A stretch of DNA of 64,000 nt from an uncultured Pseudomonadota bacterium. GTDB taxonomy: Bacteria > Babelota > Babeliae > Babelales > JAUPTZ01. The DNA lies in the NCBI GenBank assembly GCA_964429275.1, contig CAYSBJ010000003.1:64906-128905 (forward strand), given 5' to 3'. The position numbers were made by a program, and so were the translations under genes. Below are positions 8,985-59,834 of the stretch, in pieces. Numbering within the stretch: position 1 is the stretch's first letter; every line of letters starts with the position of its first letter. The notes below the pieces were generated by a model that was given only the letters and a program-made list of their open reading frames with translations, was not told the origin of the DNA and did not search any database.

Positions 8985-9008
8985 CTGCTTTATGATTGGG
9001 GGTACCCT

Positions 9009-19200: not shown

Positions 19201-19464
19201 GGCGACAAGGACTTTCTTCCAGAGAGAGAAACGCTTTTGCAGTAGTAAATATGCCTCTTCCGTCTCAGAAGAAGGGTTGGCCAGGAAGGCCTTCTCGGCA
19301 GCTTGTTTTGCCCGATATAGGTGCAAGCATTTCGCGGCGACGCCCCCAAATGCTACGGTTGCCGTTCCGGGGATGAGCGGAGATTTTGCATGTGCCGTTG
19401 GTTGGAGTTGCAGGCACAGGCAGGCGAGCGTCAGGAACGTGTGTCGCAGAGATAATTTTATCAT
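16264..19464 (-). CDS. large ankyrin-repeat protein with an N-terminal signal/bilobed hydrophobic region, a tandem Pro/Thr/Ser-rich repeat and a helical repeated C-terminus
   Basis: Signal peptide 'MIKLSLRHTFLTLACLCLQLQPTAHA'. Two hydrophobic segments. A 162/192-bp tandem repeat at 18794-19150. ANK-like units ('DEHGRTPLAKALSMGD', 'NGHTLLIEALTGSGH'). Repeated helical modules end in 'K(A/V)(R/K)K..LDK(D/E)L..KM'. The start was moved to the ATG at 19464. Confidence 0.65.
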   Translation of the reverse strand: MIKLSLRHTFLTLACLCLQLQPTAHAKSPLIPGTATVAFGGVAAKCLHLYRAKQAAEKAFLANPSSETEEAYLLLQKRFSLWKKVLVAAFGSAAVAWLLHLKGDAEQPTSHSTPQRASEIEPIATSPVSQEAEIQEAPADESTSTLRGTTPPATTSPRHTPTSQNNTSLDEQPISNQTPQRASEIEPIVTSPGSQAPESIEEEETPATTAPKHTPTPQNDTSLDYDSNDESETHPITKPSPRHSPARILTPAAPSPRPIDKPLSPSPVAETEPQPETPTVRFDELMKAIDLWGSRETIEQHLTAETVNLQDEHGRTPLAKALSMGDPKDFNREWLVRKLVDARADITKPLTFQNETAPMLPLFYAIEHCSLATQKELITAETANQQQNGAFPIVKLLEKQARTNNLQGALFLECFTKMLDAMTDPNLAKYNGHTLLIEALTGSGHYEGVLERLLSCLKIRRDRATNGQSPFEVALQQNKRMTVLIKLFCEEDTESYSLQQALDSGTQNKEAVVSFLMEKGIAPQAGNIKKAEENKLSTDLIRRMKALRATKLSEEASALAHSPDHNLHSVYTKLDEFAQEKLTIDPSLVDSLICTSLQTHPTTTVNDGDIRAALAYGLPDNSEAMKELIALQRKNEIAGIREKFKDHKVYSPSQMVQGLLALQSNDDDIRMLADKELAVHPGWSVDEHHIAQLKAYPKTQELFRTTNEKRQKAAAEVDRAETIADILALAPSLYDTEIRTHVARVIKAGHLPTKEELTDLNANPRYNSTSHLGDKSALELAQAAHNKQVREQNIARATTITELFNITNDIMRSMDYRSDLKRIPMQIRDAWWRKVYELLENLNYNLTKEEEALLLEYAGDEKNNYKKRIAVRKKRLILLSELEATTTVGQFFRKMAEWNDSIDDAIRAKINSHLQAVINDSQRKGIILFDNIEKARKYRLDKDLIGKMDEMRIERIENKIKGTTTIPSLMSIADMLEIEDRLTRRAIDIINNHLRALIAEYDKPHSTLPRVTSDNIKVAKKLDLDKELVKKMNLLRKAGLEKEQEEERLKSEAPGKADDENEEPTE

Positions 19465-19549
19465 ATTAGTATTCCAATAAGGTTGTTGATTTTTCAAATT
19501 GTGCCTTTATTGTCGCATATTTCTGCTTAAAACGTCAATCGGTCTCCGC

Positions 19550-20923
19550 CTAGGCAGTCTTGTTCGTTTTGTACATCTTGTATGCGCCGTAGCCCATGCT
19601 GCCGACGCCGGCAGTTCCAACAATAGCGGCTGTCACCAAGCGTCCAAGTGCTATCTTCTGTGCGCGAGTTAGCGTTTTTACACGGGCTTTCGTCATGAAT
19701 GGAAGGAGAGAGAGGAGTATTTTTAATGGATTCTGGCCTGATCTGATTTCAGGGCTTAGGAGTGCCATACTAAGAAGTCCTCCAAGAGTACCCGCGGCTG
19801 CGTATTGTTTGCCGGTAAAGCCTTTTTCGTTTTCTGTTTGCGTTGGTGGTGTAGAGGCATCAGCCGTTTTCTCTGCAAGTGTGCCGGTAGCTGAGGCGTT
19901 TGCGATGAGTGCGTCAACATTGATTTGTCCATCATTGCTTGTGGTCGCCTTTGGTGAGGCTGCTGGGGCATTGCCAGTCGTTGCGTCAGGTTGGTTGGTG
20001 AGCGTTTCGGGTGCGGTTTCAATGTGCGGTGAGTTTAATCCGCTGTCGATAACGGCCAATTCTTCATTGTCGCTGTCAGCTTGAGAGGATATCGTTTGAT
20101 CCTCTGGAACTTCAGCAAATTGCTCAAGCTGCGCCTGAACTGCGTGCTTCAGCGCAGCGATTTCTTCTTTTTTTGGGGTGGAAGCAAGCCAGCTCATATC
20201 AAATTTAACCCCATCAATGTTGAGGGCATTAACATTTGCTGCAAATCTAGATTCTTTGCGAAAACTGGTCGATCGTTCGTATTCATCGATTTTTGCTTGA
20301 ATGGAACGAAGCTCTTGCTCGTTCAAGTTGGTTACGTTAATAGGGCTTTTGCTTGACGTACCAGCTTCAGTCTCGGTGCTATCTTGAGTGCTGTTCGTAT
20401 CCGATGCAAAATCGAGTCGGCGGGCGGTGCTGTCTTGCGACATAGTGTCAGTACCGTTATCTGTACTGAGGCCTTGTTCTTCGAGCTGTGTAGTAACAAT
20501 ATCGCGGAGTTCTTCGATTTCTTTGCGCGTTATTTTTTCGGATGGGTTGTAGCCAATGTCGAGATCCTTTACTGCTTTTGCAAAAGTAGACTCTTTACGG
20601 AAAGTGTACCAACGACCTTGGAAATAGGTATTAATTGCATCAAAAAGTGCTTGCAGATCAGTGTAGTTAAGAGTCTTAATGAAGCTTTTGAGATCGCCAA
20701 TTCCATGCGCGTCCATTGATCGTATAAATTGTGTGCTGCTTTTGGTTTTAGGGGTATTTTGTCGAATCTTGGGGGTTTGCTCTTGGCGAGTCGTGCTGCG
20801 CTGAGGAGTTTTTAGTCCGAACTGTTGCATTTCAATTCCGTTCGTCGCTCGGTCAGCTAGGTGTGCAGCTTCCAGTATGCTGCAGATGCTTGCTAATATT
20901 CCCACCATCACGATCTTTTTCAT
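19550..20923 (-). CDS. secreted protein with an internally duplicated domain and the bilobed hydrophobic module at its C-terminus
   Basis: Signal peptide 'MKKIVMVGILASICSILEAAHLA'. It has two 'FRKES.FA..V..L.I' domains. The C-terminal 'KQYAAAGTLGGLLSMALL...KARVKTLTRAQKIALGRLVTAAIVGTAGVGSMGYGAYKMY' aligns with the N-terminal module of the 25678, 29005, 55619 and 58021 proteins. Confidence 0.6.
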   Translation of the reverse strand: MKKIVMVGILASICSILEAAHLADRATNGIEMQQFGLKTPQRSTTRQEQTPKIRQNTPKTKSSTQFIRSMDAHGIGDLKSFIKTLNYTDLQALFDAINTYFQGRWYTFRKESTFAKAVKDLDIGYNPSEKITRKEIEELRDIVTTQLEEQGLSTDNGTDTMSQDSTARRLDFASDTNSTQDSTETEAGTSSKSPINVTNLNEQELRSIQAKIDEYERSTSFRKESRFAANVNALNIDGVKFDMSWLASTPKKEEIAALKHAVQAQLEQFAEVPEDQTISSQADSDNEELAVIDSGLNSPHIETAPETLTNQPDATTGNAPAASPKATTSNDGQINVDALIANASATGTLAEKTADASTPPTQTENEKGFTGKQYAAAGTLGGLLSMALLSPEIRSGQNPLKILLSLLPFMTKARVKTLTRAQKIALGRLVTAAIVGTAGVGSMGYGAYKMYKTNKTA

Positions 20924-25677: not shown

Positions 25678-27660
25678 ATGAACATGAGGGATATACGCTT
25701 TTTAGTGCTCTTTTTAGTAACTGTTTGCTCTATTGAGTGCGTTTCTGCGCGAGATTTCAAAGCTTCCACCCACCTCAAGAGCAACCGGCATGCCTATGCG
25801 CTTCTTTTGGCGGGGCTTGCTGCTACAAATGTGGCTTACTTGGTTGCTACGGGCAAATTAGATAAAACAAAAATTAAACGGCTTTTCAGCAAGGGGCAGC
25901 GTGCGGCGACGCTCAAATTAATAGCCCCAGGCTTGGCGGCGCTTTTATTGGCCGGTGGGGTCGAAGCATATGGCTATGGATATCGTGAAGAGGGTGATAA
26001 GCCAAAAAGGGATGAGGTGCCCGTGAGTGCTGCTGATGTACAGGTAATTAGTCAGTCAGCGCCGGAAGAAATTAATCAACCGAGTGAGGAACCGGAACTT
26101 GTTGTAGAAGTGCCACTGGTTGAGCCGGCAAAATCTCTCACACCTATCGCATTGCCTGAAGTGACAGCGAAACCAGCCTCGTCGGATTCTGAGGAAACTG
26201 TTTTGAGTCAGAGTTCCGCGCAGAGTGGTTCGTCTGTTTCTGGGTCTGAAGAAGAATCCTTGAGTGATTTTGGGGGTGAAGAAGAGGATTCTGTTGTGTT
26301 ACGTGGGTGCGAAAAAGCATTGCACGAGATGAAGACTGATTTTGCTTCATCTCAGAGTGCTTATCTGCGAGGACTTGCGGCAAAAATTACAGCGCTACAG
26401 GCGGAAGGGCATCACGGGATTGCGTTGCGGGATCAGGTAAGAGCTTTCATGCGAACGGGATGGCCCAGGGTGCGAGGGATAAAACCGAAAGAGCTTCAAA
26501 CGTTGTTGGAATTTTTGGTTCCTGATGTGGACGTGTATCAGGAGCTTTCTCGTAAGGATCCAGATGAAAGAGAGCTTTCTCGTGAGGAGATATCTAGAAA
26601 CTTGGATGCTTCTATCTACGACGCGTATCGGTTCATACGCGTAGCGCAAATAGAAAAATGCACGTTGTCGAGGAGTGTGTGCGCAGCGCTTCAAGATCGG
26701 TTGAAGCAGTTGCCGTCTGATGTTGGAGTCAAGGCTCACGAGTTATCTTTTGTTCTTGACTTGGCGCAGGCGGTAGTTGATGAAGATGCGTGGGATGGAT
26801 TACCATTGGAACAACAATTTCAGGAGTATCAAAACAGAGTTAAGCTTGCTGTTGATCAAGATCAGGTAGTTGAGTCTTCAGTTTTGCCGACAGGAGCGGG
26901 TGTCGTTGAGTCTTTTGAGATGCAAGGAGGGTCGGCTGCAGTAACTCGCCCGGCGACTGATTTAGTAGTTCGAGTCTCTTCGGAACCTGTTGATCCTGAT
27001 GTGTCGGATGCGTCTTCTGCATTGATTGATTCTATGGAGACAGTTGCTGGTGAGGTCAGCTCGGCTGAGGCCGGTGCTGCTGCTCTAACCGATTTTAAGG
27101 AAGCCGCAGCTTCCTCGTCAGAGCATGAATCGCCTGTATCTCGTCCCGTTGATTTTGAAGAGGCTTGGGGTGTCTTAATCCGCCGTGTTCAGTCCAAACA
27201 ATCACCTCAGAGGAGTGATTTTATGAAGTCGCTTCTAGCCGTTCACCGTGGTAACGAAGTTCTCTTCAGAAGTGGTGTCAGGAATGCGGTAAAGGCTGCC
27301 AGCACAGATGATATAGCCGCACTTGACGAAGCAGATTTGCAACATATTCTTGGGTATATTGTTCCCGATAAGACTCTCTATGAATCATACAAAAACAAGA
27401 AAGATTTGGGTTCTGATCTTGCTGCGGTGTATAGGTTGGTAAAATTGACGAAATGTACGCTGCCGGCTGAATGCGCTGCTGAGCTTCTACGGAGAGTTCA
27501 ATCGTTGCCGGACCCTGGTAGGCGCCAGCATTTTACTGCTTTGGTGAATGAAGTAGCTCGTGAGTCGCGCAGTGCTGACTTTGCGATCGCCGATCTCGAA
27601 GCGGCCTTTGTGGAAAATGAGAACGTTGTTAAAAAGGCGCTGTCCAAGCGTAGAAAGTAG
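25678..27660 (+). CDS. bilobed-hydrophobic-module family protein (member A) with two 'LLEFLVPD' domains
   Basis: Signal peptide, then 'HLKSNRHAYALLLAGLAATNVAYLVATGKLDKTKIKRLFSKGQRAATLKLIAPGLAALLLAGGVEAYGYGY', an acidic/Ser-rich linker, and a duplicated domain ('LQTLLEFLVPDVDVYQEL', 'LQHILGYIVPDKTLYESY'). Confidence 0.65.
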   Translation: MNMRDIRFLVLFLVTVCSIECVSARDFKASTHLKSNRHAYALLLAGLAATNVAYLVATGKLDKTKIKRLFSKGQRAATLKLIAPGLAALLLAGGVEAYGYGYREEGDKPKRDEVPVSAADVQVISQSAPEEINQPSEEPELVVEVPLVEPAKSLTPIALPEVTAKPASSDSEETVLSQSSAQSGSSVSGSEEESLSDFGGEEEDSVVLRGCEKALHEMKTDFASSQSAYLRGLAAKITALQAEGHHGIALRDQVRAFMRTGWPRVRGIKPKELQTLLEFLVPDVDVYQELSRKDPDERELSREEISRNLDASIYDAYRFIRVAQIEKCTLSRSVCAALQDRLKQLPSDVGVKAHELSFVLDLAQAVVDEDAWDGLPLEQQFQEYQNRVKLAVDQDQVVESSVLPTGAGVVESFEMQGGSAAVTRPATDLVVRVSSEPVDPDVSDASSALIDSMETVAGEVSSAEAGAAALTDFKEAAASSSEHESPVSRPVDFEEAWGVLIRRVQSKQSPQRSDFMKSLLAVHRGNEVLFRSGVRNAVKAASTDDIAALDEADLQHILGYIVPDKTLYESYKNKKDLGSDLAAVYRLVKLTKCTLPAECAAELLRRVQSLPDPGRRQHFTALVNEVARESRSADFAIADLEAAFVENENVVKKALSKRRK

Positions 27661-27714
27661 GAGCTCTTGCCGGCATAGAATCGAATTGCTCTTGATTTTA
27701 ATTGATTGTTTCCT

Positions 27715-27751
27715 GAACGGGGCCCCAAAAGAGGGCCCCGTTCTCTTTTTT
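27715..27751 (+). terminator. rho-independent terminator
   Basis: gaacggggcccc-aaaagag-ggccccgttc followed by tctttttt. Confidence 0.85.
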
Positions 27752-27814
27752 CGGGATATACGATATACTGAACGGGTCAAAAGCCTTTTAAATGTAGGCT
27801 TTTTAGGGAGAAAT

Positions 27815-28870
27815 ATGAAGATTGCAGTGTTAGTTTCTGGTGGGGTTGATAGTTCGGTGGCACTTGCCCGTTTGCATGAGCAGGGGCATGAAGTCACCGC
27901 TTTTTATCTCAAGATTTGGCTGGAAGATGAGCTTTCCTTTTTAGGGGATTGTCCGTGGGAGGAAGACCTCTCTTTTGTGCGTGCGCTGTGTGAGCAATTG
28001 AACATTCCGTTGCAGGTAGTCCCGCTGCAAGAAGCGTATCGTGATCGCATCGTCTCCTATACCATTAACGAAATTCGTGCCGGTCGAACCCCGAGCCCCG
28101 ATGTCCTCTGTAATGTGCGCATAAAGTTTGGTGCATTTTTAGAAGCGATTGATAGCTCGTACGAAAAAGTGGCGAGCGGTCATTACGGCCAAATTCGTCA
28201 AGCGGCTGATGGTTCATATGAGCTGGTCTGTAGCCCGGATGAAGTAAAAGATCAAACCTATTTCCTTTCTCATTTAAGCCAAGCACAATTGGAGCGCATT
28301 TTGCTGCCGATTGGCCATATGACCAAACAAGAAGTTCGCGAAGAGGCACAGCGGTACCTGGTGCCGTCCCGTGACCGCAAAGATTCACAGGGGATCTGCT
28401 TTCTTGGGAAAATTAGTTTTACCGAGTTTATTGAGCATTACCTTGGTACGCAGGCAGGGGATATCATCGAAGAAGAGACCGGTGACTTGCTCGGTTCGCA
28501 TAACGGCTTCTGGTTTCTTACGATCGGCCAACGTCATGGACTCCGTCTTTCTGGTGGTCCGTGGTATGTCGTGCGCAAGGATACCGTAGCTAACCAGATT
28601 TTTGTGTCGCGGCGCTATCACGCTGAGGATAAAAAGCGGGATGCTTTTGTGATGCGTGACGTCCATTTCATTGGCCGGCGGCCGGAATCAAATATCGTCA
28701 GTATGAAAGTGCGACATGGTCCTGAGCGAGTAATGGCGGAGCTAAAACCGCTTGCTGATGGGCGATATGCGGTGCAGCTGGCCAAGCGGGATCAAGGCCT
28801 GGCGCCGGGGCAATTTGCGGTTATGTACAATGGGGACGTGTGCCTTGGATCTGGTGTCATTGATGACTGA
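27815..28870 (+). CDS. mnmA: tRNA-specific 2-thiouridylase MnmA
   Basis: PP-loop 'VLVSGGVDSSVAL', with 'PDVLCN', 'KDQTYFL' and 'DSQGICFLG'. The start was moved to the ATG at 27815. Confidence 0.92.
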   Translation: MKIAVLVSGGVDSSVALARLHEQGHEVTAFYLKIWLEDELSFLGDCPWEEDLSFVRALCEQLNIPLQVVPLQEAYRDRIVSYTINEIRAGRTPSPDVLCNVRIKFGAFLEAIDSSYEKVASGHYGQIRQAADGSYELVCSPDEVKDQTYFLSHLSQAQLERILLPIGHMTKQEVREEAQRYLVPSRDRKDSQGICFLGKISFTEFIEHYLGTQAGDIIEEETGDLLGSHNGFWFLTIGQRHGLRLSGGPWYVVRKDTVANQIFVSRRYHAEDKKRDAFVMRDVHFIGRRPESNIVSMKVRHGPERVMAELKPLADGRYAVQLAKRDQGLAPGQFAVMYNGDVCLGSGVIDD

Positions 28871-29004
28871 GAATGTGTTTGTACTAGTTTTATAATGAAT
28901 TTTGCTGCCACCGTGCTATTTTTGCTTGAATTGCCAATATGTTTCTTGGCGGTTGATGGTGGGTGTATACTGAAAAATATGATGTCTTTAAAGAGGGGTT
29001 TTTT

Positions 29005-32000
29005 ATGGTAAAAAGAAATATGCGGCTTTTAGTTTTGATAGTAAGTGTTGTTGGCATGGCTAATAGCTTATTTGCGGATGGATCTCGATTTGAGACTGTG
29101 TCCAAGCATGTTAAAAAGAACCGTCATGCCTATGCCGTTGGGCTTGGAACTGCCGGCCTCCTGAACTTGGCTTACTTATTTAAAAGTGGCAAGCTCAGCA
29201 AAGCTAAGCTCAAAAGACTTTTCAATAAAGAAAATAGCGCTGTAACAACGCAGCTATTGCTTGGCAGTATCCTGCCATTAATCCTTGCGGGAGGCGTTGA
29301 ATTCAATGGCCATGGCTATACGGAAGATGGCGATAATCCAACAGGTGCGGAAAAGCCGACAGGTGCTGAAAAACTAAAAACCGCTGGCGACGCAGTGCGA
29401 CTTCTGACCGGTGAGCTGAGCAAAGAGCAGCTGCGCGCTATGGATGCCGTGGGTGTTGATGCGCCGATAAAAAAAAGAGGCTCTCTAGGAAAAGAGAGAG
29501 GGGCAGAGTGGCGTCAGTCCATCTATAATTTGGATGCTTCTGATGAGCAATCAGAGCGAGCACGGAAAATAGATTTAAACAGTTTCAAAAAAGTATCTGT
29601 GGCAACTGCGCCTGTAGTTAAGTCGGGAAGCGCTCCTGTCGCCTCACATTTAAGCGACCCGAGGGATTCTGTGATAGAGTCTGCACCATCTTCAACATTA
29701 TTATCGGAACATATCGCGAGAAACGTTAAGCATGACCCTAATCCTGCGCCTGTAGAGACTAGAGAAAGTGATGCATCTAGTAATCTTTTAGCGTCTACGC
29801 AATCGCCTGAGTCGTCAGAACTTGTGAAACCGTTGCCAAGAACAGTTTCTCGACGAGTTTCTCTGTCGCCATCAAGCTCTGCAAAATCTTCAGAGCCGGT
29901 GCCGCTGTTGGTGCCACGCCAACCAACTCTTGCCAGAAGCGCCGAGAATAGAGGCTTAAACAGTTTCGAAAAAGCATCTGTGGCAACTGTGCCTGTAGTT
30001 GAAGAACCAAGTGGGTCAGAGCCGGTGCTGCCGTTGGTGTCGCACCAACCAACTCCTTCCGGAACGGCGCTGAATGAAGCATCTATGCCAAGTGCGGATG
30101 AGGCGGAGTTGAAAAAAAAAGAGCTCCAAATTCAGAAGTCTGAGGGCAAAAAAATGTTGCGTGAGGATCTTCTTAGTCGTGAAATTGAGGCACGCGCGGC
30201 TGCACTAAAATATTATCCAGATAAGGTTAATGCTCTCAGCGCGGGGGGGGGCTTTTCTGATCTTTTCAATGAAGCTAACAAGAGCGGCCGCAGTGACGCA
30301 CATCTACTAGCGCGCGACCACTTAGAGTCTGCACTTTTTGCTGGAGGCGCCGAGGTAGAATCCCAAATAAGCCAGTTGACTTCCGAACGACTGGCTCAGC
30401 TTTTAGAATTTCTTATTCCTGATAAATACCTTTATGAGAGCTACGGTGATGATAGCAGGCTTCAGTTTTTAAAACAGGATATTCGCGCGATTTACAAGTT
30501 GCTCACCCTTCTGCGCAATGGGAAGGAACCAAAGGATATTGTCATAAATGCGCAGATCAACAAGAAGCTTCGAAACCGGGTAGCCGGATTGCCGCAGAAT
30601 GTAATTCAAAATGAGAAATACGTTTTAAATTCGCTAATTGATTATGCTTATTCTGCCTCCAAATCGCCACATAGGCCTATGATACTTAATCTGATTCCAG
30701 ATTTTGATGAATTAACGACTTTTCAGCAGCATGTGGTGAGCGATCTCGATGCAGCAGAAGGCTCTTCTTCTGCCGCGGGTCCTCTGGTGTCTGGTGTAGA
30801 TGGTGCAGACGGGTCGAAAGGCTCCCCTTTTGTCGAGCAAGATTCTTTAGACGGTGAGGATGACACTAAAAATAAAACTGCTCGTGATCATTATGAGAAG
30901 ACTTTGAGTAAAAAAGTCTTTGACCAGTGGAGAGCGAGTACTCCGTTGCGGGTTAAAAAGCGCGAAAGCTCAAAAAAAGCTGTCGATCGTGCTAATAAGA
31001 AGCTGCTAAAAACGTCGTTTGAGACATGGAGATCTACTGCGGCCCAACGGGAAGAGGAGGATGTATTGAGCGGTGATCCGACTCCGGTGAATTATGATGT
31101 GCTTATGGCGAATATGGAGCGTTATTCTGGTGCGGGTTTTTTAAATTTTGTTTCAAATGCAGCGAGTAAGGCGAGCGATCCAAAAGACTTAAGGTTGTCG
31201 CTGACTGGATTAATCATGGGGAATGATCCTCTCGGAATGAATAAGGTCAGTGGCGATCAGTTGACGGTGCTCCTTGATTTTATTGTTCCTGACAAAAAAA
31301 CCTATGATGAGTATAAGAAAGAAGATGATGATAACGCTCAGGCTCGCTGGCTTACTAGCGATATCAAGGCTGCCTACAAGCTTTTGATGACGGGTGTGTT
31401 TGAGGGTCGCTCTGATTGTCGGCTAACTCCTGAAAAGCGTGATGACCTTAAGCGTAGGGTTCGCTCCTTGAGGGCTTTACCTCAGCAAGTAGCTGCCTTT
31501 GATTGGATATTGGACAGGGCGTCAGATGGTCAGCCAGGTGATATTCCCGAATATATGCAGCAATATCAACTGAAGCTTGATGCGCCTTCAGGCAAGAGTG
31601 CGATGAGCTCTTCCGGGCCCGATTCCTCTGAAGAATCAGATAGCGAGGATGAAGAAGAAGTTGCTGGTGGCTCCTCTTCGGTTGGAACGGCAGCAAAAAG
31701 ACCAGCGGGTGGCTCTAGTTCAGAGCCAGAAAAAGCAGATCTAGCTTCACCTAGCGCCCCTGTCACAGCTGCTGCGACCGCTCCTGTGGCTCCTAAAACT
31801 ATAGTGATTAATAAAGATCAGGATGGTGCCATCTCGAATGTTACTTATGAAAATTTGTCCTCAGATATTAACCCTGGTCGCGTTGATGGTTTTTGTACGA
31901 AGCACAAAGCTAGCCTGAACAAAATTATATTGAAAGATACCGACCAAGAATCTAGTGTTGCGACAGTTGGCTCTGCAGTGTTATTCGTTTATAGCGGTCA

Positions 32001-32157
32001 TCACTACTTCCTCATGCGCTATAGTGTTCGTGGCAAATGGTTCTCGCACATTCTTGATATAAATGGGCTTGAGATCAAAAATAGTTTGCTAATTCCTTCC
32101 TCTGGAGCTATTGCAGCATACAAAACGATCAAAAACACTATGGATTTACTTCGATAA
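29005..32157 (+). CDS. bilobed-hydrophobic-module family protein (member B) with two 'LLEFLIPD' domains and a C-terminal Cys-His domain
   Basis: SD aagagggg then the ATG at 29005. Module 'HVKKNRHAYAVGLGTAGLLNLAYLFKSGKLSKAKLKRLFNKENSAVTTQLLLGSILPLILAGGVEFNGHGY'. Domains 'LAQLLEFLIPDKYLYESY' and 'LTVLLDFIVPDKKTYDEY'. The C-terminus has 'VDGFCTKH' then, 35 aa later, 'VLFVYSGHHYF'. Confidence 0.65.
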   Translation: MVKRNMRLLVLIVSVVGMANSLFADGSRFETVSKHVKKNRHAYAVGLGTAGLLNLAYLFKSGKLSKAKLKRLFNKENSAVTTQLLLGSILPLILAGGVEFNGHGYTEDGDNPTGAEKPTGAEKLKTAGDAVRLLTGELSKEQLRAMDAVGVDAPIKKRGSLGKERGAEWRQSIYNLDASDEQSERARKIDLNSFKKVSVATAPVVKSGSAPVASHLSDPRDSVIESAPSSTLLSEHIARNVKHDPNPAPVETRESDASSNLLASTQSPESSELVKPLPRTVSRRVSLSPSSSAKSSEPVPLLVPRQPTLARSAENRGLNSFEKASVATVPVVEEPSGSEPVLPLVSHQPTPSGTALNEASMPSADEAELKKKELQIQKSEGKKMLREDLLSREIEARAAALKYYPDKVNALSAGGGFSDLFNEANKSGRSDAHLLARDHLESALFAGGAEVESQISQLTSERLAQLLEFLIPDKYLYESYGDDSRLQFLKQDIRAIYKLLTLLRNGKEPKDIVINAQINKKLRNRVAGLPQNVIQNEKYVLNSLIDYAYSASKSPHRPMILNLIPDFDELTTFQQHVVSDLDAAEGSSSAAGPLVSGVDGADGSKGSPFVEQDSLDGEDDTKNKTARDHYEKTLSKKVFDQWRASTPLRVKKRESSKKAVDRANKKLLKTSFETWRSTAAQREEEDVLSGDPTPVNYDVLMANMERYSGAGFLNFVSNAASKASDPKDLRLSLTGLIMGNDPLGMNKVSGDQLTVLLDFIVPDKKTYDEYKKEDDDNAQARWLTSDIKAAYKLLMTGVFEGRSDCRLTPEKRDDLKRRVRSLRALPQQVAAFDWILDRASDGQPGDIPEYMQQYQLKLDAPSGKSAMSSSGPDSSEESDSEDEEEVAGGSSSVGTAAKRPAGGSSSEPEKADLASPSAPVTAAATAPVAPKTIVINKDQDGAISNVTYENLSSDINPGRVDGFCTKHKASLNKIILKDTDQESSVATVGSAVLFVYSGHHYFLMRYSVRGKWFSHILDINGLEIKNSLLIPSSGAIAAYKTIKNTMDLLR

Positions 32158-32522: not shown

Positions 32523-32801
32523 ATGACAACGATGCTAGTGCTTTCTCTGTGCGTGGGTATTATTGGCGGTGCGGTGCACGGCCACATGGCCCGCCGCTAC
32601 AACAAAGCGCTGTTTGACGGAGAAATCCCCAATCGGTTTGGCGTGCGTTCTGCGTTTATCTTTTTTCGGACAGTGATGACGTTTATTACGATGGCTCTCG
32701 TGTTGTGGACCGGTCTTTTTTCCCCGTTATTTGTTGGAATCGGTATGGCAATTGGATTTATTGGATTTAATGTAATGTGTGCGGTGACAACATGGATGTA
32801 A
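32523..32801 (+). CDS. small 3-TM membrane protein, possible AtpI/AtpZ-like assembly factor
   Basis: 92 aa and hydrophobic. Its 3' end overlaps the start of the subunit-a gene by 10 nt. The functional call rests only on position and size. Confidence 0.45.
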   Translation: MTTMLVLSLCVGIIGGAVHGHMARRYNKALFDGEIPNRFGVRSAFIFFRTVMTFITMALVLWTGLFSPLFVGIGMAIGFIGFNVMCAVTTWM

Positions 32802-33664
32802 CATCACTTTTTTCGTATACCGCGTGGTACCCATTTGCGTGGGCTGGTTTAACGGCACCGGTTTTTGCGGTGCATGTGCAAACACTGGTGTACACCTGGA
32901 CATCCATGGTGTTGTTGCTGGGTGGTGCGTTTATTGTGCGTCGTTATTTTTTCTCAAATGATGGTTTGATGTACGGAAGTATTGAACTCCTTGTCACGAC
33001 TTTTGCCAGTATGTGCGTTGATTCAATCGGCTATTTCCGGCGTGATTATTTTAATTTTATTGCGACGCTTTTTCTTTTTACTTTTTCCGGTTGCATTGTA
33101 AGTGTATTGCCTTACATGGAAGAGTCGACGAAAGATGTGAATACAACGTTTGCTATTGCACTCATCAGCTTCTTTTACATTTGTTACCAGCAGATTGCGC
33201 AAGAAGGGTTGTTGCATTTCTTAGAACATTTTCTTGGTCATCCTGAAATGCCGATGGTAATTCGTATCATTATGATTCCGCTGGAAACAATGGGTAAACT
33301 TTCAAAGATTCTTTCTATGGCTTTTCGCTTATTTGGTAACGTTATTGGTGGTGCGGTGGTGTATCACCTTATTCTTTCGATCGTATTTCTTTTTAAAGAA
33401 CAGTTTCTTATGGCAGTCCTTATTGGCGGTGTGCTTTGGATGGTGTTCTTTAAGTTTTATGGGCTCAAGAAAAAATCACCGCTCGGCAGAATTATTAATG
33501 TTGCGATTCAGTCGCTTTTTGCGCTCGCTGCAATCCAAATGTTTTTTGGTGTTTTTGAACCGCTGGTTCAATCATTTGTTATTGCTATGCTTTCAATGAC
33601 CTACTTGGCCCTCGGAGTAAAGCATGATCTCACCCGTGATCCGAAGGGGCTCGCATGGAACTAA
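32792..33664 (+). CDS. atpB: F-type ATPase Fo subunit a
   Basis: The essential-Arg motif 'MAFRLFGNVIGGAVV' corresponds to E. coli 'LRLFGNMYAGE'. The final helix 'LVQSFVIAMLSMTYLALG' corresponds to 'LQAFIFMVLTIVYLS'. The start was moved to the ATG at 32792. Confidence 0.8.
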   Translation: MDVTSLFSYTAWYPFAWAGLTAPVFAVHVQTLVYTWTSMVLLLGGAFIVRRYFFSNDGLMYGSIELLVTTFASMCVDSIGYFRRDYFNFIATLFLFTFSGCIVSVLPYMEESTKDVNTTFAIALISFFYICYQQIAQEGLLHFLEHFLGHPEMPMVIRIIMIPLETMGKLSKILSMAFRLFGNVIGGAVVYHLILSIVFLFKEQFLMAVLIGGVLWMVFFKFYGLKKKSPLGRIINVAIQSLFALAAIQMFFGVFEPLVQSFVIAMLSMTYLALGVKHDLTRDPKGLAWN

Positions 33665-34620
33665 GTTCTGCACTCGTTTATTTTGGCGGCCTCGTTGCCT
33701 GCATAGGTGTTGGCGCCGGTGGCGCTGCTGTTGGTCAAGGGTATGCCGGTGGTGCTGCAGCTGAAGCGGTCGCTCGCCAAGCGTTAGCGCAAGGGCCGGC
33801 TCGACAGTCGTTGCTTATTGGTTGTGCGTTTTTGGAGAGTGGGTGTGTCTTCTCTCTCATTATCACACTTATTTATCTCTTCACGTATCAGGCAGCGCAA
33901 TCATGGCATGTTGCCGTGACTCTCGGTCTTGCCGCATGTGCCATGGGTATTGTCGCCGGGGTAGTGGGTGCATTTTCTGGTACGGTAGTTGCAGCGGCAA
34001 TTCGTTCTGTTGCTCGTCATCCGCGTGACTTTTCTCGTGTTTTTTCTCTTATGATGGTTGCTCAAATTTTGCTTGAAGCGCCAATGATTTTCATGTTCAT
34101 CATTGCATTCTTGGTTAAGGGATGGGCGGTGCCTACGATGTCGGTGCTCAAGGTTATTCAGCTTGCGGGAGCAAGTCTTGTCTTTGCCTGTGGAACTATT
34201 GGGCCGGCTATTGGACAGGCAGCTTACTGTCGTGCGGCGTGTGAGGCGGTTGGTTTGAATATGTCACTCTATGGACGCATTTTTTCTTTTTCATTTATTG
34301 TGCAAGCAATGATTGAGACTCCAATTATTTTTGCACTACTGACCAGTTTGATGCTTATGTTCTTAGAGCCAATGGCATCGATGCATCCACTAGAGTTGTT
34401 GGCAACCTGTATCGGTGTCATGGGAGCGGTAGGATTTGGATCAGCTGGCGCGGCAATTGGCTCAGGAAAAGCGGCAGCACGAGCGGTATTGTGTATGGCT
34501 GAGCAGGAAGAACAAGCAACTGCAGTTGCGCGGCTCGCTATATTTTGTCAGGCGATTATTGATACGGCAGTGATATATTCTCTTATTATATCGGTATTGC
34601 TGATTAAGACATGTATGTAA
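33655..34620 (+). CDS. atpE: fused four-hairpin F-type c subunit (c4 proteolipid, ~8 TM)
   Basis: 321 aa, read as four ~80-aa c-subunit-like hairpins. Helix 1 is Gly-rich ('GVGAGGAAVGQGYAGGAAAEAVARQ', 'GIVAGVVGAFSGTVVAAAIRSVARHP', 'GTIGPAIGQAAYCRAACEAV', 'GAVGFGSAGAAIGSGKAAARAV'). Helix 2 carries a carboxylate in each copy ('AFLESG', 'ILLEAP', 'AMIETP', 'AIIDTA'). The gene overlaps atpB by 10 nt. Confidence 0.75.
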   Translation: MELSSALVYFGGLVACIGVGAGGAAVGQGYAGGAAAEAVARQALAQGPARQSLLIGCAFLESGCVFSLIITLIYLFTYQAAQSWHVAVTLGLAACAMGIVAGVVGAFSGTVVAAAIRSVARHPRDFSRVFSLMMVAQILLEAPMIFMFIIAFLVKGWAVPTMSVLKVIQLAGASLVFACGTIGPAIGQAAYCRAACEAVGLNMSLYGRIFSFSFIVQAMIETPIIFALLTSLMLMFLEPMASMHPLELLATCIGVMGAVGFGSAGAAIGSGKAAARAVLCMAEQEEQATAVARLAIFCQAIIDTAVIYSLIISVLLIKTCM

Positions 34621-55618: not shown

Positions 55619-57913
55619 TTACTGCTTGCCCTCAGCAGCTTTAATAGCCTCCCCCAGGGGATCGGTGAGAGAGCTATGATCGGGAATCCCGTACCCATAA
55701 TTGTAGATCTCTGTACGAATCCTCTTAGCGGCGGCCAGGTCAGTCAGCGTTATTGGTTGCTTCTTAGCAAGCTCAATAAGCTCGATGGCTTCTAGGCCTG
55801 TTTTTAGTTCGTAAAGGAGCGTCGGCTTTGTTGTGAAAAGCGTCGCTAGCTTATTGGCTATTTGCTGAGCAATAGGATCATCTTGTGCGGTTTTCTGTAT
55901 TAGCTCAAATGCTGCGGTGAAGGAAGCCGATTCTGCTTTTAAGGGCAGTTCGCCATACGTATTGCCGTAGAGCGCATTCCATTTGGTGCAAACCTCAGTG
56001 TAGTACCTGCATTTGCCTTCTAAGGAGGCATCGCCGCTTTCTACGTACAAGCTGCCATTCTCCGGGTTTCTTTGTAAAGGAATGGGAATGTTATCATCAG
56101 AAAGCTCACTTAGGAACTTGCTACCGCTTTCCTCGAGTGACGCCTCTTCCTCCTCTATCTCGTCAAGGCGGCTCTGCATTATATCATCTATTTTCTGAAT
56201 TGCAGTCTTGACTCCTGGGAGGGTAAGCTTTCCTATAAAGTGCTTAAATTCCTCGCTCGTGTCGTATACCTTGCCGCCATCAGACATGTCAGCGACTTTA
56301 GTTTCGAACATGTTTATTACGCTGCTCACTAAAGCCTCGTGGATTGCTCTTAAATCGTTAGCGAATGTTTTCGTCATCTCATTATCCACGATATCTTTTG
56401 GTAGAGTTTTCAGAGATTTATTAATTACGTCAGCTTTCGAGAGGCGCTGCTCGGAATCATCCATTATCAGTGGATCATGGAGCTCCTCGGTGTACAGGGT
56501 GAGAAGGCGGCTAAGTGCACTTTCTTTCATAAGCTTCATAACTTCTGTAGTAAATGGTCGGTTTTGGGCATTCGTTGGGCTCCTCTTCAGGAATTGTTCT
56601 AAGTCGCTTGAGTTGTCCTTGGCAGATAAATCTTTTTGTATCTCCTGTAAGAATTGGCTTAAGAGTTTTTCCTTGAATTCTTTCAAAGCTGTGGCGGCAC
56701 GAGAATCTGGAGAAAGTTTGCTTAGAAGTGCGCTAATCTCTTCTCCTTTTTGAAATACAATATTCACGTCGACTTGGTTGGTTTTATCCTCCAGGTCTCT
56801 AACGAATTGTTCAAAATCTGCTATCTGTTGTTGTATCTCAGGGGTGATTGAGGAATCTGCTGCACTTGCGTTTGTCGTCAACAAGGGAGTATCTTCGTCT
56901 GTAGGCTTTACTGTCTCGTGTTTTCCTGAAGGGCTTTGGTCGTCCGCGTTCGGCACCACGGAAGTCGTAGTCGGCTTCAACTGTATGTCTTTATCATCTC
57001 GAACAGAGTTCGCGGGCTGCGGGTTTTGAACTACGCTTGAGTCCTTTCCAGTAGGTTTTACTTGGGGGAGAGTCGTATGAACGGGCTTTGCAAGGCTTGT
57101 TCGAGGAGATACGTCTTTCGCATCTGGATTTTTTAGTGTTTTAGTATGTTCTGTGACGGGTGCAGTAACTCTCATAGAAGTTTTTTGTTCTTCTCGGCTC
57201 TCTGCTTTTGTGACTTCCGGTTCAGCGTTCACGAGGTTATCAGGAGTCTCTGCAGCAGGTTTTGCTTGAGGGAGTGGCACGGCCCTAGGGGTGCGCATTG
57301 GGTTTGTAGAAGTTTGGCTGGGTTCAGTGTTTTCTGTGCCAGGTGCAGTAACTCTGATAGGAGTCTCTTGTTTTTCTGGGCTCTCTGCTTCTGTGACCCC
57401 CGGTTTAGCCTCTATCGGGTTATCATTAGTCTCTTCGGCAAAATTTGGTAGTGGCGTATCTGAGCTGGCGCTGACTGCATTGCTTTCGTTGCCTCCAGTG
57501 TCGTTCGTATTGCTTTCTTGAGCATGTACGGTTATTGACGGATCCTGTTTTGGCGATGTTTGTTCTTTAGCGTAGCCATAGCCATTGAACTCAACACCTC
57601 CCGCAAGGATGAATGGTAGGAGGCTGCCGAGGATTAATTGCGTTGTAACAGCGCGATTTTCTTTTTTGAAAAGTCTTTTGAGTTTAGCTTTGCTGAGTTT
57701 GCCACTTTTAAACAAGTAGGCCAAATTCAGGAGGCCAACGGCACCAAGTCCTGCAGCATACGTATGGCGATGCGTCTTGAGGTGGGTGTTCAGTGTGCCG
57801 AGTGCTGAGTCTTCTGTGCTGGCATCAGCGGCAGAGGGAGTGGTGTGCAGGTTGTTGGTGGCAAGTGCTGTAATGAGCAGTAGAGAAAGTAGGCGCAAGT
57901 GCTTGATATTCAT
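55619..57913 (-). CDS. bilobed-hydrophobic-module family protein (member C)
   Basis: The N-terminal 139 aa are identical to member D. Module 'HLKTHRHTYAAGLGAVGLLNLAYLFKSGKLSKAKLKRLFKKENRAVTTQLILGSLLPFILAGGVEFNGYGY'. A 183-bp tandem repeat lies at 57148-57445. The C-terminus is helical. Confidence 0.65.
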   Translation of the reverse strand: MNIKHLRLLSLLLITALATNNLHTTPSAADASTEDSALGTLNTHLKTHRHTYAAGLGAVGLLNLAYLFKSGKLSKAKLKRLFKKENRAVTTQLILGSLLPFILAGGVEFNGYGYAKEQTSPKQDPSITVHAQESNTNDTGGNESNAVSASSDTPLPNFAEETNDNPIEAKPGVTEAESPEKQETPIRVTAPGTENTEPSQTSTNPMRTPRAVPLPQAKPAAETPDNLVNAEPEVTKAESREEQKTSMRVTAPVTEHTKTLKNPDAKDVSPRTSLAKPVHTTLPQVKPTGKDSSVVQNPQPANSVRDDKDIQLKPTTTSVVPNADDQSPSGKHETVKPTDEDTPLLTTNASAADSSITPEIQQQIADFEQFVRDLEDKTNQVDVNIVFQKGEEISALLSKLSPDSRAATALKEFKEKLLSQFLQEIQKDLSAKDNSSDLEQFLKRSPTNAQNRPFTTEVMKLMKESALSRLLTLYTEELHDPLIMDDSEQRLSKADVINKSLKTLPKDIVDNEMTKTFANDLRAIHEALVSSVINMFETKVADMSDGGKVYDTSEEFKHFIGKLTLPGVKTAIQKIDDIMQSRLDEIEEEEASLEESGSKFLSELSDDNIPIPLQRNPENGSLYVESGDASLEGKCRYYTEVCTKWNALYGNTYGELPLKAESASFTAAFELIQKTAQDDPIAQQIANKLATLFTTKPTLLYELKTGLEAIELIELAKKQPITLTDLAAAKRIRTEIYNYGYGIPDHSSLTDPLGEAIKAAEGKQ

Positions 57914-58020
57914 AGAGAATCCCCGGCTAATTGTATAGTATTCTATGGTTTATTCTACACTATTTGAGTAAAAGAACGCAAATGATTGTGGTTTTTTACC
58001 GGCAAAAATAGTGTCTACTC

Positions 58021-59556
58021 TTACGCAGGATTTTGGATCACGAACGCTTCGCCATTCCACTGGAAGCCAGCCTTTATAAGCTTGTCGATCTTCTGAAGAA
58101 TGGGATGCTTCAGAAGCTCTTGCTGCCAATTAGGGCGCTCCTCACGTATTTGGATCTCATTAAAAAAATTAAAAGTTCTATTACGCGGAGAACTTTCCTT
58201 TTCAAAGCTGTGGCGAGTGGTGTCATGTCCTTGTGCAAGAGTCAATAAATCTTGAAGAAACTCCACCGCGTGATCTATATCCGAGATTGGGAAATCACTA
58301 TCCCCACCATAATCGGGATTTCCTAGCCAATTGGCCACGAGCGGAAAAGCTATTGGGTTATGAGGTAACTGTTCAACGACCGTACCTGCATTGTCTTTGA
58401 TTTCTCTTGCTATTGCCTCAAGCTTACCAGGTTCTGCTTTGAGATTTAGAATTAAGGAGTCTACTGCCAGTTTTTTAGTTGCCGCCCATTTTAGAGCTAT
58501 CTGAGATGTCGTCAATTCCTTTTCGCGTTGCAGCGACTTGGATAGCTGCGAGAGAGTTTCTATTTTTTTCTGCAGAGAATCACCGGCTTCTTTTTCCTTG
58601 AGCTCGCTCCATTTTCTGAGCATGCGATTGTGGATAGGATTAAATATATTTTTGAGCCAGTCTTTAATTTCATGGTTATGTACTGTCGAATCAAAACAAC
58701 CCTTTATCGTGGCTGTCTCAATGAGGTAGAGCGCTTGTTCGTCGATTTCAGCAACCTCAGTGCATGTATCAAGTCGTTTTGCAAATTCTTCAGTGTGCGC
58801 CATACGCTCTTCTATGGTTGGTGAAGATGCTTCAGCAGAGGCATCTTCTCCGTGGCGCGCGGCCGCTTTTTCGGTTTCCTCAGTGACGATTTCTGTGCTT
58901 TGCGCTACGCGCGGCACTCTGCCGCGCGTCTCTGCAGCAGGTTCTGTTGCCGGCATATTGGAGGTGGCGCTGGCAGGATCACTTTCGTTGTCTTCAGTAT
59001 CACTTTCGTTGTCTTCAGCGTCGTCCGTTTCTTCGACGGCTTCATTGCTGGTGTTTTGAATCTTAGAAGTAAGTGGCAAGGGGCTGCTTAGTGGTAGCAT
59101 ATTGGAGGTGGCGCTGACTGCATCACCTTCGCTGCCTCCAGTGTCGTTCGTATTGCTTTCTTGAGCATGTACGGTTATTGACGGATCCTGTTTTGGCGAT
59201 GTTTGTTCTTTAGCGTAGCCATAGCCATTGAACTCAACACCTCCCGCAAGGATGAATGGTAGGAGGCTGCCGAGGATTAATTGCGTTGTAACAGCGCGAT
59301 TTTCTTTTTTGAAAAGTCTTTTGAGTTTAGCTTTGCTGAGTTTGCCACTTTTAAACAAGTAGGCCAAATTCAGGAGGCCAACGGCACCAAGTCCTGCAGC
59401 ATACGTATGGCGATGCGTCTTGAGGTGGGTGTTCAGTGTGCCGAGTGCTGAGTCTTCTGTGCTGGCATCAGCGGCAGAGGGAGTGGTGTGCAGGTTGTTG
59501 GTGGCAAGTGCTGTAATGAGCAGTAGAGAAAGTAGGCGCAAGTGCTTGATATTCAT
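58021..59556 (-). CDS. bilobed-hydrophobic-module family protein (member D)
   Basis: It has the same N-terminal module as member C, then an acidic linker and an unrelated helical C-terminal domain. Confidence 0.65.
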   Translation of the reverse strand: MNIKHLRLLSLLLITALATNNLHTTPSAADASTEDSALGTLNTHLKTHRHTYAAGLGAVGLLNLAYLFKSGKLSKAKLKRLFKKENRAVTTQLILGSLLPFILAGGVEFNGYGYAKEQTSPKQDPSITVHAQESNTNDTGGSEGDAVSATSNMLPLSSPLPLTSKIQNTSNEAVEETDDAEDNESDTEDNESDPASATSNMPATEPAAETRGRVPRVAQSTEIVTEETEKAAARHGEDASAEASSPTIEERMAHTEEFAKRLDTCTEVAEIDEQALYLIETATIKGCFDSTVHNHEIKDWLKNIFNPIHNRMLRKWSELKEKEAGDSLQKKIETLSQLSKSLQREKELTTSQIALKWAATKKLAVDSLILNLKAEPGKLEAIAREIKDNAGTVVEQLPHNPIAFPLVANWLGNPDYGGDSDFPISDIDHAVEFLQDLLTLAQGHDTTRHSFEKESSPRNRTFNFFNEIQIREERPNWQQELLKHPILQKIDKLIKAGFQWNGEAFVIQNPA

Positions 59557-59834
59557 CGAGAATCCCCGGCTAAATTTATAGTATTCATGGTTTATTCTAC
59601 ACTATTTGAGTAAAAGAGCGCAAATGATTGTGGTTTTTAGTCGCGCAAGCGCACCACCTTTATCAAAGAGCGTGAAGCCCTTTGGGGGGGGGGGATGCGG
59701 TTTGGCCGCATGAAGGAAATATATGCTAGAATCAAGGCTTGAGTGGCTGCGTATTGGTCAATGGTATCTTTTTATTTAAGATTACTTATATGCTTAAGAT
59801 AGTACTGTGGTTGGTTGTTTTTGAGAGGAGCTCT

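Follow-up and report, generated by a model that had tools for sequence, protein, structure and literature searches.

Four genes (A, B, C and D) of a 64-kb stretch of DNA, which we call the window and which is the whole stretch analysed here, share a two-helix module of ~75 amino acids. It lies C-terminal to a signal-peptide-like segment and precedes variable C-terminal parts, referred to as passengers. No known domain was matched by the module, which we regard, judging from its sequence, as previously undescribed. With moderate confidence, we interpret it as a Sec-dependent export-and-anchor leader that would combine a cleavable signal peptide, a His/Lys/Arg juxtamembrane motif and a helical hairpin with interchangeable passengers. 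A portable, sharply conserved leader on unrelated passengers would mark a set of proteins that are handled alike, and could serve as a handle on how host-dependent bacteria export their host-directed proteins. The reach of this finding is limited by the occurrence of the family in only three uncultured genomes, all of them closely related.

Four genes of the window carry the module

Each of the four genes is an intact ORF. An HMM of the module was run against all six-frame ORFs of the window and matched only these four genes (E = 1e-39 to 1e-46), the next E-value being 0.23. Together with the alignment, this bears out an earlier sequence-only reading, according to which A-D have in common a signal-like start and the same N-terminal module. 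The genes, defined by ORF and module HMM, and their modules, delimited by hmmsearch domain coordinates, are located as follows:

25678..27660, plus strand: gene A, 660 aa, with signal peptide, module, acidic/Ser-rich spacer and two ~165-aa all-alpha copies (module HMM E = 1e-39; identical to P0003)
25774..25998, plus strand: module of A, aa 33-107
29005..32157, plus strand: gene B, 1050 aa, with signal peptide, module, long spacer, two all-alpha copies and a C-terminal domain
29101..29325, plus strand: module of B, aa 33-107
55619..57913, minus strand: gene C, 764 aa, equal to P0001, with signal peptide, module, repeat-containing spacer and C-type passenger
57566..57790, minus strand: module of C, aa 42-116
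58021..59556, minus strand: gene D, 511 aa, equal to P0002, with signal peptide, module, acidic spacer and D-type passenger
59209..59433, minus strand: module of D, aa 42-116

The ORF of gene B opens at GTG 28963. Because its orthologue P0005 begins at a Met equivalent to ATG 29005, the latter is most likely the start of B. The orthologue of A is P0007, encoded by the MAG JAUPVI01.

Seven carriers had originally been counted in the 64 kb, a number that has to be reduced to four, or perhaps five if gene H is included. Divergent versions had been proposed at 44429 (E), 3951 (F) and 16264 (G), but none of these genes resembles the module: they did not score with a 14-sequence HMM, the hhalign probability was at most 2.3% for E and G, and shuffle tests gave z < 1.4 for all three. 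E and G share the architecture only, that is, a signal peptide, two hydrophobic segments and a spacer. F contains a single hydrophobic segment, and a different reading frame encodes its signal-like start. The fifth candidate is part of gene H (19550-20923):

19553..19807, minus strand: C-terminal hydrophobic region of gene H, with YAAAG..GLL, a basic stretch and GYGAY (local alignment)

Aligned end to end with the module, the C-terminus of H gave z-scores of 2.0 to 3.9, and between 4 and 47 of 1000 shuffles scored as well. The hhalign probability was 5.7%, and the L013 orthologue shows conservation of this region. These values are suggestive of a very divergent copy of the module, which we do not consider established.

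Sequence features and predicted structure of the module

Sec signal peptides are composed of a basic n-region and a hydrophobic h-region, followed by small residues at positions -3 and -1. By inspection, every member of the family (A-D and eight relatives) shows a basic n-region, a hydrophobic core (Kyte-Doolittle 1.6-2.6 for the h-region) and a small-x-small site ~19-24 residues in, and all would be classified as carrying a Sec (type I) signal peptide. The putative cleavage sites are VSA/R in A, LFA/D in B and ALA/T in C and D. A lipobox, in which the signal peptide terminates in L-[AS]-[GA]-C, is absent: the first 40 residues of B, C, D and most relatives do not contain any Cys, and Cys17 and Cys22 of A are found outside any lipobox context. 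Sortase-type sorting signals consist of a C-terminal motif, a transmembrane helix and a basic tail. For sortase, exosortase and rhombosortase signals (LPXTG, PEP-CTERM, GlyGly-CTERM), neither NCBIfam nor Pfam gave a match at E <= 0.1, and the module was N-terminal in 12 of 12 database matches. The module itself gave no match in Pfam-A or NCBIfam at E <= 0.1, nor in PDB sequences or with Foldseek, and PDB sequence searches with A, B, C and D were likewise negative. The initial impression that the module is not a described domain was therefore confirmed within these searches.

The module starts with a His/Lys/Arg motif (H.K..RH), followed by helix 1, a Gly/Ala helix of weak hydrophobicity that contains an invariant Asn, a polybasic connector, helix 2, which ends in AGG(V/A/I)E, and finally G(Y/H)GY. 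The connector comprises 17-21 aa, the two hydrophobic segments lie 21 residues apart, and the net charge of the connector ranges from +5 to +8 across all members. The 100 aa downstream of the module consist of 45-67% P/S/T/A/E/D and are net acidic in all members except B (+2). Thus, the hydrophobic/basic/acidic layout described beforehand was recovered. The possibility that the polybasic connector forms an amphipathic helix lying in the membrane plane was rejected, since the hydrophobic moment was not consistently larger than that of shuffles.

Mean pairwise identity amounts to 61% in the module versus 32% in the signal region and 22% downstream, which argues for a constraint specific to the module. 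Moreover, 60-70% of the four-fold sites differ between A and B or C, indicating that the conservation of the module protein is old and selected. Twelve positions of the module are invariant, among them the polar residues H, K, H and Y, an Asn within helix 1 and the Glu of AGGVE. Since a passive anchor would not need these residues, they predict a specific partner or processing step, which we consider likely.

The two hydrophobic lobes noted in the sequence-only reading are both present, but lobe 1 reaches a Kyte-Doolittle value of only 1.16 over 19 residues in B, C and D, which is below the usual transmembrane threshold; across members its values (1.0-1.7) are mostly under this threshold. Lobe 2 is at threshold with 1.71-1.76 (1.4-1.9 across members). 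On the Hessa scale, lobe 1 of B, C and D scored +5.3 and lobe 2 +3.7 to +3.9, compared to a median of +1.1 for the clear transmembrane segments of the window. An AF2 model of the module places helices at 49-69, 75-81 and 87-110 with low confidence (pLDDT 57).

Helix 2 has a hydrophobic core of just ~15 residues, with a Pro in the centre and GG at the end. The A-G-(G/A) at this end fits the -3/-1 rule in every member, and an invariant E, G.G and a near-invariant Y come directly after it. Helix 2 could then be an internal cleavable signal peptide, and a cut before (V/A/I)E would free a VE.NGYGY N-terminus that serves a dedicated machinery as sorting tag in a second step. The level of conservation, which suits protein recognition better than a passive anchor, and the presence of LepB in the window (40890-42128) are consistent with such processing. 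We nevertheless judge it unlikely: no candidate for the reader machinery was identified, and helix packing or capping could explain the same residues. Processing of this kind would also give no role to the first signal peptide and to helix 1.

Distribution of the module family

A profile search of 1.84 billion protein representatives retrieved 12 module proteins, all of them with the module at the N-terminus, from three related uncultured genomes. The relatives, whose synteny is conserved, all derive from JAUPVI01 (Candidatus Dependentiae; assembly GCA_030917105.1) and from two JGI samples (3300027923 and 3300027924). The closest relative, which is the only NCBI genome of the three, is labelled Candidatus Dependentiae, and the assignment to this phylum comes from the MAG of this one relative. 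Based on these matches, A-D belong to a small, lineage-specific family of narrow distribution. A scan of viral contigs gave no match to the module. One locus picked up by the metagenome scan, L014, was spurious, as its HLKPHRHTYA string occurs by chance in a frame that does not look coding.

Members of the Dependentiae occur widely, live in obligate association with protists and encode many ankyrin and ORFan proteins with signal peptides (PMC6561590, PMC4776705). In the cultivated member Chromulinavorax, signal peptides are reported on 44% of the CDS and on 78% of the ankyrin proteins, and Sec is the proposed route (PMC6561590).

Passengers and recombination at the module boundary

At least five unrelated passenger classes are joined to the module: an all-alpha repeat domain of ~165 aa (A, B, P0005 and P0007), the C-type passenger (C, P0008 and an 857-aa protein of L007), the D-type passenger (D and P0009), nine ankyrin repeats (P0006) and a long passenger without match (P0010). 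The C-terminal domains had been described as unrelated, which is correct for these classes but not for A and B, which share the repeated all-alpha domain. The postulated fusion to eukaryote-like domains does not occur in the window, where the RING and ankyrin genes lack the module, but it is found in the relative P0006. The all-alpha copies are located as follows:

26275..26790, plus strand: passenger copy 1 of A, 'LLEFLVPD' all-alpha domain, aa 200-371 (repeat HMM E = 4e-62)
27157..27585, plus strand: passenger copy 2 of A, aa 494-636 (repeat HMM E = 3e-45)
30175..30681, plus strand: passenger copy 1 of B, aa 391-559 (repeat HMM E = 4e-51)
31048..31554, plus strand: passenger copy 2 of B, aa 682-850 (repeat HMM E = 4e-56)

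Copy 1 of A was modelled by AF2 as eight helices (pLDDT 83, pTM 0.81), and a Foldseek search of PDB and BFVD gave no meaningful match for this fold (E = 0.09 at best, with a TM of about 0.2). A C-terminal domain common to B and the RING protein F was ruled out (BLASTP E = 0.49).

The neighbouring genes C and D have a duplicated 5' region, as detected by windowed identity and direct repeats (D1 and D4):

57445..57996, minus strand: 5' block of C duplicated in D, comprising signal peptide, module, the first part of the spacer and ~80 nt upstream
59088..59638, minus strand: matching 5' block of D

Beginning with the start codon, C and D are 100% identical in DNA until about +430 nt and unrelated beyond. 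This abrupt transition indicates that the module was moved or homogenised by recombination. In addition, tandem neighbours are more alike than positional orthologues, and in L013 the gene at the A position has a B-type module. Recombination at the module boundary therefore swaps or homogenises the leader, and effector-like genes are rebuilt in this way. The exact C/D repeat could in principle also result from assembly collapse. For the family as a whole, an assembly artefact or a chance similarity of low-complexity and hydrophobic sequence is practically inconceivable and has already been refuted by E-values of 1e-39 or lower and by the fact that NCBI, Logan and JGI assemblies, built from different samples, yielded the family independently. 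In L007, too, the tandem pair borders three PQ-loop genes, and there its two modules are non-identical.

A conserved 5' leader or anchor with variable 3' parts is also known from the variable lipoproteins of mycoplasmas and from polymorphic toxins with N-terminal trafficking domains. Our family resembles these in its conserved N-terminal export/anchor segment, its interchangeable C-terminal parts and the recombination at the boundary, but it differs by the lack of a lipobox, of toxin/immunity pairs and of Pfam or NCBIfam trafficking domains. TonB/TolA tethers possess a single N-terminal anchor, a Pro-rich spacer and a conserved TonB_C or TolA C-terminal domain. In contrast, the anchor described here is a hairpin behind a signal peptide, and no TonB_C, TolA or other envelope domain was detected by Pfam in A-D or their relatives. 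By analogy to such tethers or to variable surface families, the anchor might hold variable, fast-evolving extracytoplasmic domains on long spacers at the bacterium's own envelope, without any effector role. The order of anchor, Pro/Ser/Glu-rich spacer and C-terminal domain would agree with this, as would the identical 5' block of the tandem genes C and D and the outer membrane of Dependentiae, which has been described as degenerate (PMC4776705). But the nine-ankyrin passenger points to eukaryotic targets, and neither silent cassettes nor inversion sites were seen, so that, together with the missing envelope domains, we regard an envelope family as very unlikely.

Proposed function of the module

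The family itself, with its conservation, charge and hydrophobicity pattern, narrow distribution, diverse passengers and recombination, is established by the data above. We infer the topology of the module, its dependence on Sec and an action of the passengers at the bacterium-host interface, using crude hydrophobicity scales and the positive-inside rule for the topology. According to the export-and-anchor model, the signal peptide would start export through Sec. Helix 1 and the polybasic connector would stop the transfer, with the connector kept in the cytoplasm by virtue of the positive-inside rule. Helix 2 would re-initiate translocation and thereby bring both the passenger and the preceding spacer, which is acidic/Pro/Ser-rich and about 100-400 aa long, beyond the inner membrane, at the far side of which the passenger would be tethered by the long and flexible spacer. 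The leader represents a minimal element for reporter fusions.

Some observations speak against the export-and-anchor model. Lobe 1, which is sub-threshold in most members, might not span the membrane. Without a further export step, it is not obvious which host target an ankyrin passenger trapped in the periplasm could have, and the invariant polar residues are left unexplained.

Alternatively, though rather improbably in our estimate, the module could act as the signal for recognition and translocation in an undescribed effector delivery of Dependentiae, which would depend on Sec and proceed in two steps. The hairpin, or the VE.NGYGY end after cleavage at AGG, would be read by a dedicated machinery that takes ankyrin and other passengers from the periplasm into or onto host membranes.

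Comparison with Inc proteins and other host-directed proteins

The module had initially been likened to the chlamydial Inc proteins, a likeness that we retain as an analogy only, since loop, signal, sequence similarity and phylum all differ. Chlamydiae do not have FtsZ, whereas the genome analysed here encodes it (FtsZ and FtsA at 13596-16190), and its closest relative is labelled Dependentiae. Common to both groups are two closely spaced hydrophobic segments near the N-terminus, putative helices in our family, separated by a loop of < 30 aa, diverse C-terminal domains and the presence of many paralogues in an intracellular bacterium (PMC3048545). Inc loops have a mean length of 8 residues, are turn-forming and do not contain K/R/D/E (PMC3048545), in contrast to the 17-21 aa and the charge of +5 to +8 found here. 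Incs show little primary-sequence similarity among each other (PMC3656976), whereas the module is 61% identical on average with its 12 invariant positions. Finally, Incs occur in Chlamydiae only and carry a type III signal at the N-terminus (PMC3048545, PMC3656976), compared to the Sec-type signal peptide read by inspection in our proteins, and there is no sequence homology between Incs and the module. On these grounds, the module is best viewed as analogous to Inc proteins and not as a member of that family.

It could still act as an Inc-like anchor in host membranes. Following Sec export, the protein would cross the outer membrane in a second step by type II secretion or in vesicles, and the hairpin would insert into a host-derived membrane and display the passenger to the host. 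Both helices are marginally hydrophobic on crude scales, and the transmembrane segments of T3SS and T4SS effectors similarly have a moderate hydrophobicity just under the threshold for inner-membrane targeting (PMC6110835). These effectors, however, have no Sec signal peptide and rely on T3SS/T4SS signals and chaperones, and no such system is visible in the window. The ankyrin passenger of one relative would fit a host-membrane anchor as well, as would the type II secretion genes and two GspD copies in Dependentiae core genomes (PMC4776705) and the documented Sec-dependent secretion of Coxiella, which is also intracellular (PMC3882888). Nevertheless, we find this alternative doubtful: no route is known by which a two-helix protein gets from the periplasm into a host membrane, the module deviates from Incs in loop, signal, sequence similarity and phylum, and with a positive-inside loop and entry from the lumen the passenger would remain lumenal. 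Furthermore, the 64-kb window does not contain any secretion-system gene. To our knowledge, Dependentiae have neither a type III nor a type IV system.

The ankyrin and ORFan proteins of Chromulinavorax destructans offer another comparison. The parts of the report that concern these proteins describe signal peptides only and mention no hairpin module behind them (PMC6561590). The two sets of proteins have the phylum label in common, both comprise putative host-directed proteins with Sec signal peptides, and our family likewise includes an ankyrin protein, the one with nine repeats.

Genes A to D share an N-terminal module

The four genes A to D are all intact, and their alignment showed that each opens with a signal-peptide-like segment followed by a common block of ~75 residues, the module (in C, NTHLKTHRHTYAAGLGAVGLLNLAYLFKSGKLSKAKLKRLFKKENRAVTTQLILGSLLPFILAGGVEFNGYGY). 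They are located in a window of 45-48% GC with a strongly positive GC skew:

25678-27660, +, gene A, intact ORF
27815-28870, mnmA, between A and B
29005-32157, +, gene B, intact ORF (a GTG at 28963 opens the ORF; in the orthologue, the initiating Met corresponds to 29005)
55619-57913, -, gene C, intact ORF
58021-59556, -, gene D, intact ORF

C and D lie in tandem and adjoin three PQ-loop genes, a tandem triplet of the eukaryote-type transporter fold (53522-55611, +).

We searched all six-frame ORFs of the window with a module HMM, filters off. Only A-D matched (E = 1e-39 to 1e-46), the next-best match having E = 0.23, and a second HMM built from 14 family sequences again matched only these four genes. 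This bears out the sequence-only reading that A-D have an N-terminal module in common, and the similarity is confirmed as far beyond chance. Its count of seven carriers in the window shrinks to four: E, F and G show no similarity, and only H is a possible fifth.

E (44429-45829, +) and the ankyrin protein G (16264-19497, -) do possess a signal peptide, two hydrophobic segments, a basic connector, a disordered spacer and a passenger. But profile-profile comparison of their N-termini with the module gave probabilities of at most 2.3%, and local alignments of E, F and G remained at z < 1.4 against 1000 shuffles. E and G were therefore rejected as carriers, their likeness being one of architecture without detectable homology; the genome may use this design repeatedly. 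The N-terminus of G is kept in its orthologue on L013, a JGI sample contig from a related uncultured genome. F was rejected on the same shuffles and because it has a single hydrophobic segment. It combines ankyrin repeats with a RING finger, a eukaryote-like E3 ligase architecture. The signal-peptide-like start of F (about 3818) is out of frame with its main ORF (3951-5804, within the region 3790-5804, +), so the gene is frameshifted, a pseudogene, misassembled or affected by a sequencing error. H (19550-20923) ends in a hydrophobic region that its L013 orthologue also retains. From end to end, this region can be aligned with the module (YAAAG..GLL, basic stretch, GYGAY), with z = 2.0 to 3.9. 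Between 4 and 47 of 1000 shuffles were equally good, and hhalign gave only 5.7%. A divergent, C-terminal module copy in H is possible.

Distribution, constraint and exchange of the module

Profile searches of Pfam, NCBIfam and PDB gave no match to the module, in agreement with the earlier suggestion that it is not a described domain. Its distribution is very narrow: in an exhaustive HMMER search of 1.84 billion representative proteins, 12 matched the module profile, 11 of them at E <= 1e-24. The module is N-terminal in all 11 complete proteins; the remaining one, P0012, is a truncated gene call starting within it. C, D and A account for three of the matches, six belong to the MAG JAUPVI01 (GCA_030917105.1, labelled Candidatus Dependentiae bacterium by NCBI, all six annotated as hypothetical), and JGI samples 3300027923 and 3300027924 contribute three between them. 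The assignment to the Dependentiae rests on the NCBI label of JAUPVI01. The three genomes are related, since they share synteny. On L013 the order is FtsZ, orthologues of G and H, L31, RF-1, a 465-aa protein, a nucleoside transporter and a module gene at the position of A; on a second JGI contig, L007, two tandem module genes adjoin three PQ-loop genes (7817-10076), mirroring the arrangement of D, C and the PQ-loop genes in the window. The module is a real, previously undescribed, lineage-restricted leader on four genes of the window.

Averaged over all pairs of the 12 members, identity is 61% within the module, compared to 32% for the signal and pre-module region and 22% for the sequence downstream. 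When A is compared to B or to C, about half of the residues are identical, yet in the codons for identical residues 60-70% of the four-fold degenerate sites differ. This indicates that module conservation is old and held by selection. The DNA of C and D is nevertheless 100% identical over a block that reaches from about 50 nt upstream of the start codon to about +430 nt, and outside this block the two genes are unrelated. Module identity is 1.00 (window) and 0.74 (L007) for tandem neighbours, compared to 0.59-0.65 for positional orthologues, and the module at the A position of L013 resembles the B type more than the A type. Taken together, these observations suggest gene conversion or an exchange of modules at a sharp boundary, and the module is recombinationally mobile. 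The latter L013 gene (9800-11008) has a frameshift within the module and is either a pseudogene or an assembly error. The disordered spacer of C contains an imperfect 132-nt tandem duplication of 77% identity (57140-57454, -).

Passengers of the module

Passenger classes were defined by BLASTP and HMM comparison of the parts beyond residue 135 in the module proteins (P numbers, database matches).

Passenger classes of the module family
All-alpha: ~165-aa domain with motif LLEFLVPD..Y; two copies in A, two in B, three in P0005, one in P0007
C-type: C, P0008 and an 857-aa protein of L007
D-type: D and P0009
Ankyrin: P0006 (nine repeats); P0005 has an ankyrin-like stretch
P0010: long, no match to other passengers

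The cargo had been described as unrelated, which holds for several classes across the family but not for A and B, which share the ~165-aa domain. Eukaryote-like fusions, which the earlier reading placed in the window, occur only in a relative (P0006, P0005). AF2 confidently predicts eight helices for the A/B domain (pLDDT 83, pTM 0.81), for which PDB and BFVD structures, Pfam and PDB sequences offered no meaningful match.

Module anatomy and putative function

Each signal region begins with a basic n-region, continues with a hydrophobic core and, ~19-24 residues in, has a small-x-small site, which reads VSA/R in A, LFA/D in B and ALA/T in C and D; neither a lipobox nor a twin-arginine motif is present. 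After 10-25 variable residues, the module starts with the motif (N/S)(T/K)H(L/V)K..(R)H.YA. Next comes helix 1, rich in Gly/Ala and with an invariant Asn. It leads into a 17- to 21-residue connector, whose net charge lies between +5 and +8 in all members, and then into helix 2, which has T.QL, a conserved Pro and a C-terminal LAG(G/A)(V/A/I)E, followed by G(Y/H)GY. The 100 residues downstream are net acidic except in B and consist to 45-67% of P/S/T/A/E/D. Read by the positive-inside rule, under which basic segments stay on the cytoplasmic side, the signal peptide, the highly basic connector and the acidic sequence downstream fit one consistent topology. The N-terminus would be exported and its signal probably cleaved, helix 1 would cross back with the connector remaining inside, and helix 2 would exit, so that spacer and passenger are translocated. 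From these features we infer the module's function: most likely, though with only about an even chance, it is an export-and-anchor leader, which would hold interchangeable passengers on a tether beyond the inner membrane. The proteins could also be the bacterium's own envelope or surface proteins.

The hydrophobicity of both helices is modest. Kyte-Doolittle values (19 residues) range from 1.0 to 1.7 in helix 1, where B, C and D all have 1.16, and from 1.4 to 1.9 in helix 2. Hessa 19-mer sums in B, C and D are +5.3 and +3.7 to +3.9, compared to a median of +1.1 for clear transmembrane segments of the window's transporters, a set thresholded at <= 3 that overstates the contrast. Such marginal values resemble those of secreted transmembrane effectors (PMC6110835), and the hairpin may have a host membrane as its target, reached by a further export step. 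The core genes of the phylum include type II secretion genes and two copies of GspD (PMC4776705), and Coxiella is a documented case of Sec-dependent secretion (PMC3882888). Helix 2 could also be an internal signal peptide whose cleavage releases the passenger. Its 15-residue core, central Pro and invariant A-G-(G/A), which fits the -3/-1 rule, together with the conserved stretch just beyond, look as much like such a signal as like the anchor of the export-and-anchor reading. An AF2 model from an 11-sequence alignment has helices at 3-20, 37-47, 49-69, 75-81 and 87-110 with a mean pLDDT of only 57. Foldseek found no match to this model in PDB, a result of little weight.

The conserved residues include polar ones. 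Since these are invariant and would be superfluous in a passive anchor, specific recognition is suggested, and a partner, a protease or a self-association interface could recognise the module.

Comparison with known families and further observations

The proposed likeness to Inc, the chlamydial inclusion membrane proteins, is a reasonable analogy of working mode, but membership fails on the features compared: loop composition and length (here 17-21 residues, +5 to +8), sequence conservation (61%), N-terminal signal type (signal-peptide-like) and phylum (PMC3048545, PMC3656976). The window encodes FtsA and FtsZ and is therefore not from a chlamydia. Catalogued sorting signals, among them lipoprotein and sortase-type ones, were excluded by the missing lipobox, the lack of an NCBIfam match and the N-terminal position. 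The nearest biological context is formed by those ankyrin and ORFan proteins of Dependentiae that bear signal peptides, for which the covered parts of the source describe no conserved post-signal module (PMC6561590). In the cultivated member Chromulinavorax, 44% of CDS carry signal peptides, and among ankyrin proteins the share is 78% (same source), consistent with their presence on many ORFs of unknown function in the window. The module family may offer a useful starting point for studying how an uncultured parasitic phylum exports effectors.

The unknown ORFs with signal peptides include tandem paralogues of ~237 aa without Pfam match (61496-62206 and 62301-63017, +) and those beginning at 2379, 47911, 48644 and 63030. 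A 195-aa eukaryotic-type (alpha) carbonic anhydrase (45859-46446, -) was called without a signal peptide. A 321-aa ORF (33655-34620, +), 3' of an a-subunit gene (32777-33664) and followed by a glycosyltransferase, with no other F1Fo genes nearby, comprises four fused ATP-synthase c-subunit hairpins, in each of which the ion-binding carboxylate is retained (E, E, E and D, respectively). Finding a quadruply fused c subunit beside an F-type a subunit is unusual.
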